A DNA stretch of 64,000 nucleotides, taken from positions 8,962 to 72,961 of the forward strand of contig ONCJ01000005.1 of the NCBI GenBank assembly GCA_900316295.1. Direction: 5' to 3'. Within the stretch, counting starts at the first letter, position 1. Every line of letters starts with the position of its first letter. This document shows positions 7,595 through 13,755 of the stretch, piece by piece. The position numbers and the translations under genes are program-made. Under the pieces are notes generated by a model. That model was not told the DNA's origin and ran no database searches. It was given only the letters and a program-made list of their open reading frames with translations. The stretch comes from an uncultured Prevotella sp. GTDB lineage: Bacteria > Bacteroidota > Bacteroidia > Bacteroidales > Bacteroidaceae.

Positions 7595-8656
7595 ATGAAA
7601 ATACAACGATACTTTTATATAGTATGTGCCTTTCTGTGTTTAGTAGGTTGCACTGGGGTAGCGAATGACTCACATGAAGATGGCGAGTCGCGTCGTGGTG
7701 ATACGCTACGCACCAAATCGTCACAAGCAGCCGTAGATAAAGGAAATCAACCGGCTGTTGATGACATGTCCGAAAAGGACGTTATGGTGTTTACTCCCCA
7801 GTGGATGGCGCAAGCACAGTTTGCAGGCTACTATGTAGCCGAGGCAAAGGGATTCTATCGAGAAGCGGGCGTGAATGTTCGTATCGAGCATCCGTCGCCT
7901 ACGTCTCCAGCTATCAGTCGTTTGCGCAACGGTCAATGCCAAGCAACGACGATGCAACTATGCCAAGCTCTAGAGGTTGTAGATGGAGGAATTCCTTTGG
8001 TGAACATCTTGCAGACGTCTATGAACAATGCTATGGTCATTGTCTCGGCACGAGACAAGAACCCGTTGACACAGAAGGGTGGACGTGTGGGAATATGGAG
8101 CGTCGATTTCGGTCAGTTAGCTATCTGCATGAGTATAAAAGACCACCTCGACTATCAATGGGTGCGCTTTGCTCAGAATATAAACCTCTTTGTCGCAGGA
8201 GCCCTTGACGCCACACTCGCTATGAGCTATAACGAATATTACCAGTTGGTACAGGCAGGCATCGAGATGAACGACAAGAACGTTTATCGTTTTTGTGATC
8301 ATGGCTATAATGTACAGGAGGATGGAGTATATATGACCCGCGACTATTATGAGAAGCATAGTGAGTATGCCAAGAGATTTGCACAGGCAAGTAGAAAAGG
8401 GTGGGAGTGGACTGCCAGTCATCCCGACGAAGCACTCGATATTGTGATGGAATATGTCAATAGGGATTATGTGGCATCTAATGAAGTCCTGCAGCGCCTG
8501 ATGCTCCAGGAGGTGTTGCGTCTTCAGGTAGATCGTGAGTCTAAGAAGCGCGAATTCAGGTTGCGCCCCGACATGGTGCGACTTGCAAGTCAGCTTATGG
8601 TTGAATACCAGATGCTGAGTCGTGAGATTAAGTATGAGGAACTGATAGATAATTGA
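7595..8656 (+). CDS. NMT1/THI5-like solute-binding lipoprotein (no ABC permease or ATPase nearby)
   Basis: Lipobox-like LVGC; PQWMAQAQFAGYYVAEAKGFYREAG and FAQASRKGWEW are typical of NMT1/SsuA-type binding proteins. Confidence 0.82.
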   Translation: MKIQRYFYIVCAFLCLVGCTGVANDSHEDGESRRGDTLRTKSSQAAVDKGNQPAVDDMSEKDVMVFTPQWMAQAQFAGYYVAEAKGFYREAGVNVRIEHPSPTSPAISRLRNGQCQATTMQLCQALEVVDGGIPLVNILQTSMNNAMVIVSARDKNPLTQKGGRVGIWSVDFGQLAICMSIKDHLDYQWVRFAQNINLFVAGALDATLAMSYNEYYQLVQAGIEMNDKNVYRFCDHGYNVQEDGVYMTRDYYEKHSEYAKRFAQASRKGWEWTASHPDEALDIVMEYVNRDYVASNEVLQRLMLQEVLRLQVDRESKKREFRLRPDMVRLASQLMVEYQMLSREIKYEELIDN

Positions 8657-8675
8657 CAATTGATAATTGACAGCT

Positions 8676-11057
8676 ATGAAAGATATCATACAATTTATCC
8701 GTCGTAAACTCTCTGTGAGAGTCAGCCTGTGGGTGGTGTTCTTCGCTGCTATTATCTTCAACATAGCTCTCGGCTTTTTGTTCTATCAGGCTCGTGATGC
8801 CGTGCGTCAAGAGTCAATCAGCAGGGCTACTCAGATATTGGATAAGACCTCTCTGCATGTAGAGAGTATTCTCAATCGTGTAGAGGTGGCTACCAATATG
8901 ACTGCATGGCTCGTACAGCGTCATCCCGAGAATGCCGACTCCATGTTTGTCTACAGCCGTGGCGTGTTGCTCAATAATCCCGACTTCTACAACTGTTCCA
9001 TAGCCTTCGAGCCATATTATTTCAAGGATAAGGGACGCTATTTCTCTGCCTATACCAGACATGATGGCGACAGCATCCGTACTATACAGGGTGGTAACGA
9101 CAACTATCAGTATTTTTTTATGGACTGGTATCTGATGCCATCGCTGCTCAATAAGCCGTGTTGGACCGAGCCATACATGGATTACGATGTAACCACTAAT
9201 TCGAGCGAGATGGTCAGCAGCTACTGCCAGACTCTCAAGAACAAGGAGGGTAGAGTGATAGGAGTTGTCAATACCAGTCTCTCACTGAACTGGTTCTCAC
9301 AAACGATTTCAAAAATAAAGCCATATCCCAACTCTTACAGTATCATGATAGGTCGTGGTGGTACTTATTTTGTCCATCCAGACTCATCTAAAGTCACCCG
9401 TCAGACCATCTTCACTCAGACAATAGAGCAGCCCGATACGGCACTCGTGGCATTGGGACATGCCATGCAGCGTGGTGAAGAGGGCATGAAGCAAATGACT
9501 ATTGATGGCAAGAACTGCTATGTATTCTATAAACCCCTTGGCAAGACAGGATGCTCAATGGCGATAGTTTGTCCTGAAAAGGATATCTTCGGTGGCTTCG
9601 ACAGACTTCGCAATAGCGTCAGGGCCATCGTCTTGGTGGGTCTGTTGATGATGCTCTATTTCTTTATTCGTATCATCACACGCGAACTTCAGCCTCTTCG
9701 TAGATTGGCACAGGAAGCTGAAACGATAGCTTCGGGCCAGTTTGATGCCCAGTTACCTGAATCAAAGCGTATTGATGAGATAGGTCAGCTGAGCCAGTCG
9801 TTTGGCAATATGCAGCAGTCGCTTGTGAAATACATCGAAGAACTCAAAGACACCACAGCCCAGAAGACGCTGATAGAGAGAGATATCCGTATCGCCAGTG
9901 GCATACAGATGGGTATGTTGCCTAAGACATTCCCCACAAAGGAAGATAGTGACGACGTACAACTCTACGCCTCACTGACCCCAGCCAAGGAGGTAGGTGG
10001 CGACCTGTTCGACTTCTATTTCCGTGATGAGAAGCTCTTCTTCTGTATCGGAGATGTGTCGGGCAAGGGTGTGCCAGCCTCACTATTCATGGCAGTCACA
10101 CGTTCTACCTTCCGTACTGTATCTGCCCATGAGTCGTTGCCCGATCGTATTGTGACTACGATGAACAAGACCATCGCCGACATGAACAAGACCCACATGT
10201 TTGTCACGCTCTTTGTTGGTGTGCTTGATTTGCCCACGGGTCGTCTGCGCTACTGCAATGCGGGCCACGATGCTCCGTTGTTGGTAGGTGCTGGTGTCGG
10301 CGAGATGCCGTGCGATGCTAATATTCCCGTGGGTTTCATGCCATCCTGGAAATATTCGTTGCAAGAGATTCATATCTTTACTGGTACTACTATTTTCCTG
10401 TTTACCGATGGTCTTACCGAGGCCCAAGACTCACAGACCAACCAGTTCCAGATGGAGCGCGTCATCGATGTGGCACACCACGCCCTCTCTTTGCAACAGC
10501 AGGAACCTCGCCAGTTTATTGACATGATGACAGAAAACGTCCGTCAGTTTGTGGGTGATGCCGAACAGAGCGACGACCTCACGATGATGGCAATACAATA
10601 CATCCGCCAGCAGAGCGACATCCGAATGCGTAAGAGCATAGTGCTGACTAATGACATCAAGGAGGTGACTAAGCTGATAGCTTTTGTTGAAGATGTCTGT
10701 GAGACAGTCCAAATGGATGAGGCTACAACTATGCAGATGAAGATTGCTATCGAGGAGGCTGTGGTCAATGTTATCAACTATGCCTATCCCGTCGGTATGC
10801 GTGGTGATGTGACCATTGAGGCTGCCTCCAATGACGTACGTCTGAAGTTTACCATCATTGATAGCGGCAAGCCCTTCGACCCAACAGTCCATGCAACCGT
10901 CGATACAAAGCTGTCAGCCAAGGACCGCCGTATCGGAGGCTTGGGCATTCACATCGTACGCCAGATGATGGACTCGATGAACTACGAGCGTGTTGGCAAA
11001 CTCAACGTGCTCACTCTTAGGAAGAAAATAAATAACAAAAATACAAACAATCAGTAA
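8676..11057 (+). CDS. Membrane sensor: TM-Cache-TM-HAMP-SpoIIE/PP2C phosphatase-HATPase (RsbW-like kinase) fusion
   Basis: Cache-like DWY...WTEPY. HAMP-like PLRRLAQEAETIASG...DEIGQL. PP2C motifs VGGDLFD, GDVSGKG, NAGH, FTDGLTEA, DDLT. RsbW-like EEAVVNVINYAY, DSGKPFDP, GGLGIHIV. Confidence 0.92.
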   Translation: MKDIIQFIRRKLSVRVSLWVVFFAAIIFNIALGFLFYQARDAVRQESISRATQILDKTSLHVESILNRVEVATNMTAWLVQRHPENADSMFVYSRGVLLNNPDFYNCSIAFEPYYFKDKGRYFSAYTRHDGDSIRTIQGGNDNYQYFFMDWYLMPSLLNKPCWTEPYMDYDVTTNSSEMVSSYCQTLKNKEGRVIGVVNTSLSLNWFSQTISKIKPYPNSYSIMIGRGGTYFVHPDSSKVTRQTIFTQTIEQPDTALVALGHAMQRGEEGMKQMTIDGKNCYVFYKPLGKTGCSMAIVCPEKDIFGGFDRLRNSVRAIVLVGLLMMLYFFIRIITRELQPLRRLAQEAETIASGQFDAQLPESKRIDEIGQLSQSFGNMQQSLVKYIEELKDTTAQKTLIERDIRIASGIQMGMLPKTFPTKEDSDDVQLYASLTPAKEVGGDLFDFYFRDEKLFFCIGDVSGKGVPASLFMAVTRSTFRTVSAHESLPDRIVTTMNKTIADMNKTHMFVTLFVGVLDLPTGRLRYCNAGHDAPLLVGAGVGEMPCDANIPVGFMPSWKYSLQEIHIFTGTTIFLFTDGLTEAQDSQTNQFQMERVIDVAHHALSLQQQEPRQFIDMMTENVRQFVGDAEQSDDLTMMAIQYIRQQSDIRMRKSIVLTNDIKEVTKLIAFVEDVCETVQMDEATTMQMKIAIEEAVVNVINYAYPVGMRGDVTIEAASNDVRLKFTIIDSGKPFDPTVHATVDTKLSAKDRRIGGLGIHIVRQMMDSMNYERVGKLNVLTLRKKINNKNTNNQ

Positions 11058-11069
11058 TCTATAATCAAA

Positions 11070-11372
11070 ATGAAAACAACAATCCAAGAACAAAACGGCA
11101 ATATGGTTGCCATTCTTGAGGGACGTCTCGACACCGTCGCCGCACCAGAGACTGAAAAGGCTATGAATGTACTCAATGACGTTGAAGACAAGGATATCAT
11201 CATCGACTGCACCGATCTTGAGTATATATCTTCGGCTGGGTTGCGTATCTTCCTTGGCATCCTGCAGAATGCCCAGGAGCGTGGAGGACATGTATATATC
11301 AGAAATATCAACGACCAGGTTCGCACCATCTTCACCATTACGGGTTTCAGTAATATCTTCGAGTTTAAGTAA
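11070..11372 (+). CDS. STAS-domain anti-sigma-factor antagonist (RsbV/SpoIIAA-like)
   Basis: GRLDT, IIDCTDLEYISSAGLR containing the phosphorylatable Ser, and IFTITGF. Confidence 0.93.
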   Translation: MKTTIQEQNGNMVAILEGRLDTVAAPETEKAMNVLNDVEDKDIIIDCTDLEYISSAGLRIFLGILQNAQERGGHVYIRNINDQVRTIFTITGFSNIFEFK

Positions 11373-11390
11373 AAGGCAAACATCAGTCTG

Positions 11391-12476
11391 ATGAGCAACA
11401 TAATACTTGACCCACATGGCGAGGCTCTGATGAAGCAATTCCGTGAGCTGCGCCCTACGCTCGAGGCCATCTCTGATAAGGCCTACGACATACTGGCTCG
11501 AGCCCTGAAAGATCAGGAAATCTACGTCACAGCCATCGAACACCGCATAAAGACAGAGAAGTCTCTGGCAGGCAAACTCGAACTGAAGGGTGTCAAATAC
11601 AAGACCATCGATGACATTACCGACCTTGTCGGTCTGCGAGTCATCACATTCTATACCGACGAGGTAGATAAGGTGGCAGCCATTGTCAAGCGTATCTTCG
11701 ACATCGACTGGCATGAGAGTGTTGACAAGCGCAAGCTACATGAGCTCGATGCCTTCGGCTATAACTCCCTGCATTTCGTCTGTAGGCTGAAGCCGCAAGA
11801 TGCTATTGACCCAGATAGGAATCCGAGGTTCGAGCTACAGATGCGCACCGCCCTGCAGCATGTGTGGTCTACCATCGAGCACGACACAGGCTATAAGGGC
11901 GACGTGAAGATACCACGAGAGTATAAGAGGCAGTTCAGCCGTCTGGCAGGAATGATGGAGCTTATCGACGACGAGTTCAGCCGTCTGCGTACAGTCCTCA
12001 CCGATTATCGTCGAAACACGTTGTCACTTGTCAAGAGTGGCAAACTCAATGAAGTGCCACTCTCTCGTGAGAACTTCCGTAACTACCTCGACCTTCATCC
12101 CTTCGATCGCCTCAACCTTCGTATTGCCGCCGTCAATCAGGCAGAGATCTATCCCGTATCGGTGATGTCCTATCTGCCCGTACTCGAATCCTTCGGACTG
12201 GAGACCCTTGGCGACGTCGAGCACTTCATCGACGACAACGGCGAGGATGCCTATCAGCTTGCCGTCTCTCAGCTTGCCATCACCGATCTCGACCTCCTCT
12301 CGTCCAATACTGCCATACAGTATCTATGCCTGGTCTATGTGTTGAAACACGGCGGAGGATGTGACGGTATCAAGTCGTTCTTCGACGTCATCAATGGCGA
12401 GTCTTCCACTAACGACATGTTGGCAGAGATGATGATGGAGCAAGCCTATACCTTGCCATTCATGCATAAGAAATAA
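11391..12476 (+). CDS. Small alarmone synthetase (RelA/SpoT SYNTH domain) with an extra C-terminal domain
   Basis: RIKTEKSLAGK, DLVGLRV, GYNSLH and ELQMRTALQHVWSTIEH match Syn1-4. No HD, TGS or ACT motifs seen. Confidence 0.9.
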   Translation: MSNIILDPHGEALMKQFRELRPTLEAISDKAYDILARALKDQEIYVTAIEHRIKTEKSLAGKLELKGVKYKTIDDITDLVGLRVITFYTDEVDKVAAIVKRIFDIDWHESVDKRKLHELDAFGYNSLHFVCRLKPQDAIDPDRNPRFELQMRTALQHVWSTIEHDTGYKGDVKIPREYKRQFSRLAGMMELIDDEFSRLRTVLTDYRRNTLSLVKSGKLNEVPLSRENFRNYLDLHPFDRLNLRIAAVNQAEIYPVSVMSYLPVLESFGLETLGDVEHFIDDNGEDAYQLAVSQLAITDLDLLSSNTAIQYLCLVYVLKHGGGCDGIKSFFDVINGESSTNDMLAEMMMEQAYTLPFMHKK

Positions 12477-12509
12477 TATTAGTGAAACACAAATCAACAT
12501 TATAGGAAA

Positions 12510-13145
12510 ATGAACAAAAACGAGAAATTCGTCATCACCATCAACCGCGAAGTCGGTTCTGGTGGACGTACCGTGGGACGCAAATTGTCAGAGAGGTTAA
12601 ATGTAAAATATTTTGATAAGGCTATCGTCGACGGACTTACTGAGAAGTTCGGACTCTCCATAGAGCGTATAGAGAAGATAAAGTCACAGAAAAAGTCGTG
12701 GTGGAATGACTTCAATAACTACTACCAGACGCTCATCAATAGCGCCTCCTTGCCTATGGAGGCAGAGGTGAAGCTCGACAATGCCACTATGTTTGAGACC
12801 GAGAAGCGTATCCTCAGCGAACTGGCAGAACAGTCATCATGCGTCATCGCTGGTCGTACGGGCTTCATGATCTTCCGTGAGTGGCCCAACCACCTGAACA
12901 TCTTCATTCAGGCATCAATGGAGCATCGCATCCAGCGTGTCATGCGCCGCCAGAACGTCGGGGAGACTGAGGCACGTGATATCATAGCAAAGATGGACTC
13001 CAGCCGTGAGACCTACATCCAGAAGTACGAGGATACATCACGCTACGACACACGCAACTACCAGCTTGTCATCTCTATGGACGATCTGAGCGAAGACGAT
13101 GCTGTGGAGGTTATCATGGAATACATCAATCGTACCAGCAAGTAA
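12510..13145 (+). CDS. Cytidylate kinase-like family protein
   Basis: FVITINREVGSGGRTVGRKLSERL, CVIAGR, IFIQASMEHRIQR, YQLVI. Confidence 0.88.
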   Translation: MNKNEKFVITINREVGSGGRTVGRKLSERLNVKYFDKAIVDGLTEKFGLSIERIEKIKSQKKSWWNDFNNYYQTLINSASLPMEAEVKLDNATMFETEKRILSELAEQSSCVIAGRTGFMIFREWPNHLNIFIQASMEHRIQRVMRRQNVGETEARDIIAKMDSSRETYIQKYEDTSRYDTRNYQLVISMDDLSEDDAVEVIMEYINRTSK

Positions 13146-13170
13146 AGGGAATTTGCTTCATATAACAAAG

Positions 13171-13755
13171 ATGAAAAACAAGTCGTTAGACACCAAGCTG
13201 CTCGATCGTGCCATAGAGTTTGCCGTCCATGCCCACGCAGGCATCGAGCGTCGTGGCAAAGGATTTCCCTATATCGTTCATCCCATGGAAGCCGTAGAGA
13301 TAGTAGCCACCATGACCTCCGATCAGGAGCTGCTGGCGGCTGCCGTACTCCACGACGTCGTCGAGGATACCGACATCACCATTGATCAGATACGCAGAGA
13401 GTTTGGCGAACGCATAGCCTCTATCGTAGCTGTGGAGAGCGACAACTGCGACACCACCGTCAGTCCCTCCACCACATGGCACGACAAGAAGCAGGCAGCC
13501 ATCACTCGCCTGTCACGTGCTCCCTACGACGCAAAGATGGTAGCCCTGGGCGACAAGCTCTCCAATATGCGAGCCATAGCCCGCGACTATGCCGTACAGG
13601 GCGATGCCCTCTGGAGCCTCTTCCGTACCAATGACCCCCATGAGCATGCGTGGCACTATCAGGGACTAGCCCGTGCCCTGAGCGACCTTCATGACACACC
13701 TGCCTATCAGGAGTTTAGCCATCTCGTCGATCAGGTCTTTCATTCTAAGGAATAG
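13171..13755 (+). CDS. HD-domain small alarmone hydrolase (Mesh1-like)
   Basis: AHAGIERRG..PYIVHP, AAVLHDVVEDT (HDxxED), DKLSNMR. Confidence 0.88.
   Translation: MKNKSLDTKLLDRAIEFAVHAHAGIERRGKGFPYIVHPMEAVEIVATMTSDQELLAAAVLHDVVEDTDITIDQIRREFGERIASIVAVESDNCDTTVSPSTTWHDKKQAAITRLSRAPYDAKMVALGDKLSNMRAIARDYAVQGDALWSLFRTNDPHEHAWHYQGLARALSDLHDTPAYQEFSHLVDQVFHSKE

Follow-up and report, generated by a model that had tools for sequence, protein, structure and literature searches.

A small alarmone synthetase as the putative output of a partner-switch operon in Prevotella

Known inputs to alarmone synthesis are ribosome and metabolite sensing by the long RelA/SpoT homologues (RSH), regulation of RelQ and RelP at the transcriptional or allosteric level, and toxin-antitoxin release. 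The closest described arrangement in which a partner switch drives a second messenger is SiaABCD of Pseudomonas aeruginosa, consisting of the PP2C phosphatase SiaA, the kinase SiaB, the STAS-like SiaC and the diguanylate cyclase SiaD; here the phosphatase and kinase pair sets the state of the small switch protein, and this protein controls the second-messenger synthase (PMC7647112). Among small alarmone synthetases (SASs), the toxic members (toxSASs) make ppApp or pyrophosphorylate tRNA (PMC7229694; 10.1101/2021.04.30.441581), and CapRel is a fused toxSAS-antitoxin that acts as a tRNA pyrophosphokinase (PDB 7ztb; PMC9712102). In this study, we analysed a 64,000-nucleotide (nt) stretch of DNA from an uncultured Prevotella sp. 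(contig ONCJ01000005.1), referred to as the window. Its positions 11391-13755 (+) contain three open reading frames (ORFs), encoding an SAS, a cytidylate-kinase-like P-loop protein (CKL) and a small alarmone hydrolase (SAH), exactly where a preliminary description of the stretch had placed them. Together they make up the 3' half of an operon with six genes, all on one strand (7595-13755, intergenic gaps of 10-33 nt). The preliminary description was right about the three genes and left out the partner-switch genes directly upstream, which are their main context and which suggest that the synthetase may be the output of a membrane sensor.

The operon starts with the gene of an NMT1/THI5-like periplasmic substrate-binding protein (7595..8656, +; PF09084, 100.8 bits). 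It is followed by the gene of a membrane sensor in which Cache/PDC, HAMP, PP2C (SpoIIE) and RsbW-like HATPase_c_2 domains are fused (8667..11057, +; PF22673, PF00672, PF07228 with 158 bits and PF13581 with 84 bits), and by that of a single-domain STAS protein of the anti-sigma-factor antagonist type (11070..11372, +; PF01740, 65 bits; TIGR00377, 68.8 bits, above its cut-off). The STAS gene ends 18 nt upstream of the SAS gene, and CKL and SAH complete the order. Positions 8667-11372 thus encode a complete partner-switch set: a PP2C domain, a serine kinase of the HATPase_c_2 type and, in the STAS protein, a serine predicted to be phosphorylatable. The N-box EEAVVNV and the G-box IGGLGI of the sensor kinase are conserved in 40 homologues, and the serine motif YISSxGLR of the STAS protein is conserved in 49 sequences. 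The best NCBIfam match of the sensor fusion is SiaA, the phosphatase of the partner switch that drives a second-messenger cyclase.

On the one hand, this operon resembles the RsbU-RsbV-RsbW-sigmaB and SpoIIE-SpoIIAA-SpoIIAB-sigmaF switches of Bacillus in its PP2C, serine-bearing STAS and HATPase_c_2 families with their conserved motifs. On the other hand, no sigma factor gene is present among its six genes, and the SAS gene occupies the position of the target. In this respect it is closer to SiaABCD, where a PP2C phosphatase, a Ser/Thr kinase and a small switch protein also act on a nucleotide second-messenger synthase instead of a sigma factor; for the Prevotella operon this output is predicted. 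It differs from SiaABCD in that the output would be a RelA/SpoT-type pyrophosphokinase with an additional tail domain rather than a GGDEF cyclase, in that a single membrane protein carries both the phosphatase and the kinase, and in that a dedicated hydrolase and accessory kinases belong to the cluster.

The association of these genes recurs widely. We compared the surroundings of SAS in 80 loci, each from another species and mostly from rumen Prevotella and Xylanibacter, among them the cultured X. brevis ATCC 19188, X. ruminicola and Prevotella sp. P6B1, and counted neighbours at a distance of up to 8 kb from SAS; an earlier set of 27 loci obtained from genome searches gave the same picture. 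A STAS gene stands directly upstream of SAS in 41 of the 80 loci and within 8 kb in 45, and at least one partner-switch gene of any kind is found in 48. The remaining neighbours are RsbW-like HATPase (38 loci), SAH (37, directly adjacent in 19), PP2C (33), Cache (32), NMT1 (21), CKL (15), an APH-fold kinase (11), a CitMHS/TrkA_C transporter (8) and Y_phosphatase3 (5). From lineage to lineage the genes are arranged differently, and their persisting linkage is therefore likely to be under selection. In one genome (G276), SAS stands alone, and SAH lies beside NMT1 and the Cache-PP2C-HATPase gene on another contig.

Gene fusions join the same partners. A 521-amino-acid (aa) metagenome protein (P0128) combines a HATPase_c_2 domain with SAS and its tail. 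In genome G300, SAH and the tail-bearing SAS form a single ORF of 561 aa with HD_4 and RelA_SpoT domains (L041:6368-8050, the same as L018:874-2562), and this ORF re-creates a bifunctional layout like that of the long RSH enzymes. Two genomes of different families carry SAH fused to an APH-fold kinase domain (469 aa in L006:2586-3995 of G090 and 470 aa in L054:8167-9579 of G378), which suggests that this kinase acts in the same pathway as SAH.

The dependence of the hydrolase on the synthetase was also evident at the level of whole genomes. Among 200 genomes sampled from the same family, 23 were SAS-positive and 177 SAS-negative, and the SAH subfamily (E <= 1e-40) was found in 18 of the former and in none of the latter (Fisher 2e-21, a descriptive value). 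Five SAS-positive genomes lack the SAH subfamily. The confinement of SAH to SAS-positive genomes and the single-ORF fusion support SAS and SAH as a dedicated pair.

The synthetase itself (11391..12476, +; 361 aa) consists of a catalytic region (aa 1-217, 11391..12041) and a C-terminal domain. The RelA_SpoT family PF04607 matches aa 51-171 (nt 11541-11903) with 64.2 bits against a cut-off of 27 and is the sole domain matched; with neither HD, TGS nor ACT domains in Pfam or NCBIfam, the protein qualifies as a SYNTH-only SAS. The motifs RxKxxxSxxxK, DxxGxR, GYxSxH, ExQxRT and HxxxxHxxxYK are invariant in 24 aligned homologues and align to the catalytic motifs of RelQ-family structures. The invariant residues are R52, K54, S58, K62, D75, D78, R83, G123, Y124, S126, H128, E148, Q150, R152, H157, W159, H164, Y168 and K169. 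An AlphaFold2 (AF2) model of the full-length protein (predicted local distance difference test, pLDDT, 88.9) superposes on RelQ/RelP with a template-modelling (TM) score of ~0.8 (5ded, 6ex0). SAS shares the SYNTH fold and catalytic motifs with RelQ and RelP (SAS1 and SAS2), but it is only ~23% identical to them, carries an extra ~145-aa C-terminal domain and stands in another genetic context. Assignment to the RelQ/YjbM equivalog was rejected (NF053588, 66.6 bits versus a cut-off of 320). The source genome encodes two long RSH genes as well. SAS, including the tail, is kept at full length with 43-88% identity in many Bacteroidales species, and relatives are encoded by at least 590 stretches of species-representative genomes. 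Its occurrence is patchy: it is found in 24 of the 201 genomes from the same family, in none of 10 from the same genus and in 9 of 201 from across the order.

The hydrolase gene, of the RelH/Mesh1-like HD_4 type, extends to position 13755 (+). Its PF13328 match reaches 70.5 bits (cut-off 27.2), and the solved hydrolases 4yf1, 7qoe and 7qoc match with E values from 2e-21 to 5e-18. Across 38 homologues the motif series H...HD...ED...D..N is conserved, and the catalytic residues (H61, H85-D86, E89-D90, D152 and N156 in ORF numbering) together with the HD_4 score identify the protein as an SAH. The longest ORF, 13099-13755, overlaps the end of the CKL gene by 47 nt. The alignment with homologues begins only at residue ~22-27, which makes the ATG at 13171 the most likely start and gives a protein of 194 aa (13171..13755); considering that the conserved protein begins there, an automatic annotation of the longest ORF would over-extend it.

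The C-terminal domain of SAS (aa ~218-361, 12042..12476, mostly helical) had been described beforehand as about 150 residues with neither TGS nor ACT motifs and of unexplained nature, and both statements hold, with Pfam and NCBIfam empty over this region. The AF2 model of aa 205-361 alone (pLDDT 94.1, predicted TM score 0.88) shows nine helices and two short strands. This fold resembles no solved structure: a Foldseek search with the tail against the Protein Data Bank gave no match below E 2.4, a wide VIA-align search reached a best Z of 4.8, which is below the usual noise for helical models, and the best score in an ESM Atlas feature search, 0.78, lies within noise. On the sequence level, phmmer found 115 matches to the tail among 1.8 billion representatives; most of them are the C-terminal part of a ~350-aa protein or a short fragment of one. 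Among the candidates set aside were four repeat proteins with low-complexity matches (P0141, P0169, P0196 and P0229) and two that look like chimeric metagenome proteins (P0130 and P0135). The motifs PFxRLNxRIAAxNQAE, DAYQLA, TDLDI and the C-terminal LPFM are conserved. The tail is therefore a real, conserved domain. Its STAS and RsbW-like neighbours and the fusion to HATPase_c_2 suggest that it is probably a partner-docking or autoinhibitory surface.

Taking the domain content, the intact catalytic motifs, the gene linkage, the co-occurrence and the fusions as the observed basis, we infer the binding partners, the product and the role of CKL in the following model, in which we have moderate confidence. 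A partner switch would gate alarmone synthesis by SAS in a SiaABCD-like manner, SAH would reset the signal and CKL would be accessory; the core system would consist of sensor, partner switch, two-domain SAS and SAH. The periplasmic binding protein and the Cache-HAMP sensor may set the balance between the PP2C phosphatase and the RsbW-like kinase of the sensor, and this balance would fix the phosphorylation state of the STAS protein. The target of the switch would be SAS instead of a sigma factor, and either of two mechanisms is conceivable. The unphosphorylated STAS protein could bind and activate SAS, in the style of SiaC and SiaD, or the RsbW-like domain could keep SAS inactive until it is displaced by the STAS protein; in both cases, the ~145-aa tail would probably serve as the docking or autoinhibitory surface. 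Once active, SAS would use ATP to pyrophosphorylate an acceptor at its 3'-OH. This acceptor is most likely GDP or GTP, although an adenine nucleotide or tRNA is conceivable. The HD domain of SAH would remove the pyrophosphate again. CKL, the APH-fold kinase and Y_phosphatase3 would be accessory phosphotransfer proteins that join the cluster in some species.

Several points weigh against this model. As a whole it rests on gene context, and the genomes compared are related, so that the counts and Fisher tests overstate independence; we take the Fisher values as descriptive only because related genomes are not independent. In 17 of the 80 loci, SAS stands without any of these genes up to 8 kb away, and an upstream STAS gene is absent in 39. 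The HATPase-SAS fusion was seen at the level of a metagenome protein. Whether or not a STAS gene stands upstream, the tail motifs of the SASs are conserved to the same extent, which suggests that the function of the tail is independent of an adjacent STAS gene. Moreover, prophage SASs that share tail homology have no partner-switch neighbours, and the tail predates the Prevotella cluster. Accordingly, the ancestral role of the tail was something else, possibly, by analogy with CapRel, autoinhibition or sensing.

These prophage proteins lead to another explanation, namely that SAS is a regulated, growth-arresting toxSAS, making (pp)pApp or pyrophosphorylating tRNA at its 3'-CCA terminus, with a tail that is autoinhibitory or a sensor as in CapRel and with SAH as a type IV antitoxin. 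The module would serve abortive infection or dormancy, and the partner switch of Prevotella would be an added trigger. The closest family by sequence is indeed phrog_9640, with 40-46% identity in the SYNTH domain; its profile matches SAS aa 12-217 with E 4.9e-56, and RelQ scores far lower at ~62 bits. By the criterion of full-length coverage, however, SAS fails as a member of this family, as only profile positions 6-218 of 365 are covered. The members of phrog_9640 are two-domain proteins of ~355-375 aa on prophage contigs, that is, of a length similar to SAS, and they occur as opposite-strand morons (~360 aa) amid the tail genes of P2-like prophages, as in E. coli S88, or next to phage methyltransferases. 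When the tails alone were compared by hhalign, SAS and the prophage SASs gave a probability of 92% (E 6e-7, 117 columns), which points to remotely homologous tails; the NQAE, DAYQLA and TDLDI motifs are specific to the Bacteroidales clade. On the other hand, STAS, PP2C and SAH genes are absent from the neighbourhood of the prophage copies. In a quick tree rooted on the long RSHs of the source genome (a thorough tree search is incomplete), the prophage and Bacteroidales SASs are sister clades, indicating that the two-domain layout is old; the Prevotella clade is thus not nested inside the prophage clade, and a full-length copy of SAS was not found on phage or plasmid records.

CapRel, which is similar in its size (~360-370 aa) and in its N-terminal SYNTH domain followed by a ~150-aa C-terminal domain, and which also resembles SAS in that relatives of the latter are prophage-borne, is a further system for comparison. 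The phmmer match between the two has E 0.24 and covers SYNTH only, as does the Foldseek alignment; with a match this weak, the two tails may still be related. CapRel is not among the matches of the tail-alone Foldseek and VIA-align searches, so its tail is not detectably related. FaRel-ATfaRel (PMC7229694) is similar in that an SAS gene lies directly beside that of an HD_4-type SAH and in that the hydrolase is tied to the synthetase being present. SAH never occurred without SAS in our sample, as expected of an antidote, and SAH antitoxins neutralise every toxSAS tested (PMC7229694). Nevertheless, SAS and SAH do not appear to form a conserved bicistron: 5 of the 23 SAS-positive genomes have no SAH, SAH is adjacent in only 19 of the 80 loci, and SAS is embedded in a sensor operon. 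Its surroundings hold the genes of a ligand sensor and of a binding protein rather than defence genes. PADLOC gave a match to PDC-S33, which is weak and limited to the SYNTH part, as it also is for the prophage relatives, and we rejected membership. While the patchy distribution given above would suit a toxin module, sequence identities of 60-80% between genera would sooner be expected of housekeeping signalling genes. Distant Bacteroidales two-domain SASs (~35% identity) in L059 (G024) and L062 (G026) adjoin a phage-type integrase or an IS1595-type transposase with no partner-switch genes nearby, and these copies look mobile. The preliminary description had raised a toxSAS-antitoxin module as a possibility. 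Its pairing of SAS with SAH was supported as dedicated, and its attention to the tail and to CKL was borne out by the conservation of the one and the recurrence of the other; the toxin reading gains from the prophage morons being the closest relatives outside Bacteroidales and is weakened by the sensor and partner-switch wiring and by the SASs lacking SAH. On balance, we consider it unlikely.

The prophage family deserves attention in its own right. WP_001280130.1, annotated as a GTP pyrophosphokinase, is a phrog_9640 member in a P2-like prophage of E. coli S88 (L181; NC_011742.1 2184402-2185481), where it is a moron on the opposite strand between the genes of baseplate protein V and a virion morphogenesis protein. 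Of 5426 complete E. coli genomes, 14 carry this ~360-aa two-domain P2-prophage protein; L156-L180 hold other copies of the family, some of whose members adjoin phage DNA methyltransferase genes. The phrog_9640 protein looks like a CapRel-like defence candidate. We found nothing in the literature on this family or on an RSH gene in P2 hotspots.

Another explanation, put forward in the preliminary description, makes CKL the effector of the alarmone or the enzyme that interconverts it (for example pGpp and ppGpp), the product of the pathway being a non-canonical nucleotide. CKL (12510..13145, +; 211 aa) matches PF13189 Cytidylate_kin2 with 153.7 bits (cut-off 28) over profile positions 1-175 of 176. 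Its P-loop, REVGSGGRT (aa 13-21, nt 12546-12572), has no Walker lysine. The description had called this usual for the family, and the solved homologues 3hdt (REYGSGGR) and 3fdi (REFGSGGH), which match CKL with E ~1e-20, have the same lysine-less loop; comparison of these sequences indicates that it is a trait of PF13189. Identity as a true cytidylate kinase (Cmk) was rejected, as TIGR00017 (25.7 bits versus 135.55) and TIGR02173 (48.1 versus 102.1) fell short and the Walker A lysine is absent. The sequence constraint on CKL is strong: 16 copies that are close or linked to the cluster share GSGGRT with hardly any variation, one of them reading GTGGRT, and MNKNEKFVITINRExGSGGRT is almost invariant among the copies.

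CKL was contiguous with a cluster gene in 12 of the 15 loci that carry it within 8 kb of SAS, in the varying arrangements SAS-CKL, CKL-SAS, SAS-SAH-CKL and CKL-SAH. Close copies (E <= 1e-45) occur in 12 of the 23 SAS-positive and 6 of the 177 SAS-negative genomes (Fisher 3e-9, read as above). The generic PF13189 family is near-universal, with 176 of 201 genomes of the same family, and a generic paralogue fused to DUF6198 was uninformative. These observations make CKL a real, recurrent but optional member of the cluster and not a chance neighbour. The recurrence of the APH-fold kinase and Y_phosphatase3, and the two fusions of APH to SAH, also speak for nucleotide processing in the pathway, and CKL has a weak PADLOC match to the nucleotide kinase found in fusion with prokaryotic viperins, which brings to mind kinases supplying enzymes that modify nucleotides. 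However, CKL is absent from 65 of the 80 loci and from 11 of the 23 SAS-positive genomes, which means that it is not needed for the core function, and six genomes carry close copies without SAS. Its kinase activity is only putative considering the missing lysine. In the literature, we found no PF13189 member with a characterised function or substrate, and for this reason what can be said about the chemistry of CKL is hypothesis: it probably binds or phosphorylates a pathway nucleotide, supplying the substrate or processing the product. We regard an effector or interconverting role as rather improbable.

Doubtful to a similar degree is an extended form of the partner-switch model, in which an extracellular ligand, acting via the Cache sensor and the partner switch, would gate SAS through its tail, and CKL, the APH-fold kinase and Y_phosphatase3 would convert the product to or from a non-canonical nucleotide. 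Y_phosphatase3 (PF13350), often paired with the APH-fold kinase gene, recurs beside SAH or SAS (L050, L052, L054, L079, L086, L094, L104 and L151), and together they look like a second writer and eraser pair in the cluster. In several species, TrkA_C (RCK_C) transporters of the Na/H exchanger or CitMHS type are inserted inside the cluster, between the genes of the RsbW-like kinase and the STAS protein in L046, L047, L055, L056, L110, L115 and L120. It is possible that these transporters are effectors of the nucleotide, or that they hint at an ionic or osmotic signal.

Finally, the idea that three unrelated genes are neighbours by chance and that the tail is a mere structural appendage, for example for oligomerisation, could appeal to the 17 loci with SAS alone and to the generic PF13189 genes of most family genomes, but it is already contradicted for the linkage of SAS, SAH and STAS, as linkage, co-occurrence and fusions go far beyond chance for genes occupying ~0.5% of a genome and as an identity range of 43-80% and varied gene orders argue against one recent clonal lineage, and we consider it very improbable.

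In summary, a partner switch with an RSH-type synthetase and hydrolase pair as its putative output is a combination of known kinds that is undescribed in the literature we found; no paper that we found links partner switching to a small alarmone synthetase, or STAS or PP2C proteins to ppGpp. Our study adds the homology between the tail and the prophage proteins, the nesting of SAH within SAS-positive genomes, the linkage counts for PF13189 and the SAH-APH and SAH-SAS fusions. The shared tail domain ties the phrog_9640 prophage SASs to the Prevotella system, and the PF13189 family gains a concrete pathway context. Should the extended form of the model hold, it would provide the first function for PF13189 and a new input route to the nucleotide family of the stringent response. 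The partner-switch model is directly testable, as the carriers Xylanibacter brevis ATCC 19188, X. ruminicola and Prevotella sp. P6B1 are in culture. The system is common in rumen and gut bacteria of the Prevotella group. If the model is true, a membrane sensor with a serine-phosphorylation partner switch would be a new input route to alarmone synthesis in these bacteria, and the small alarmone synthetase would be a new partner-switch output beside sigma factors and diguanylate cyclases.

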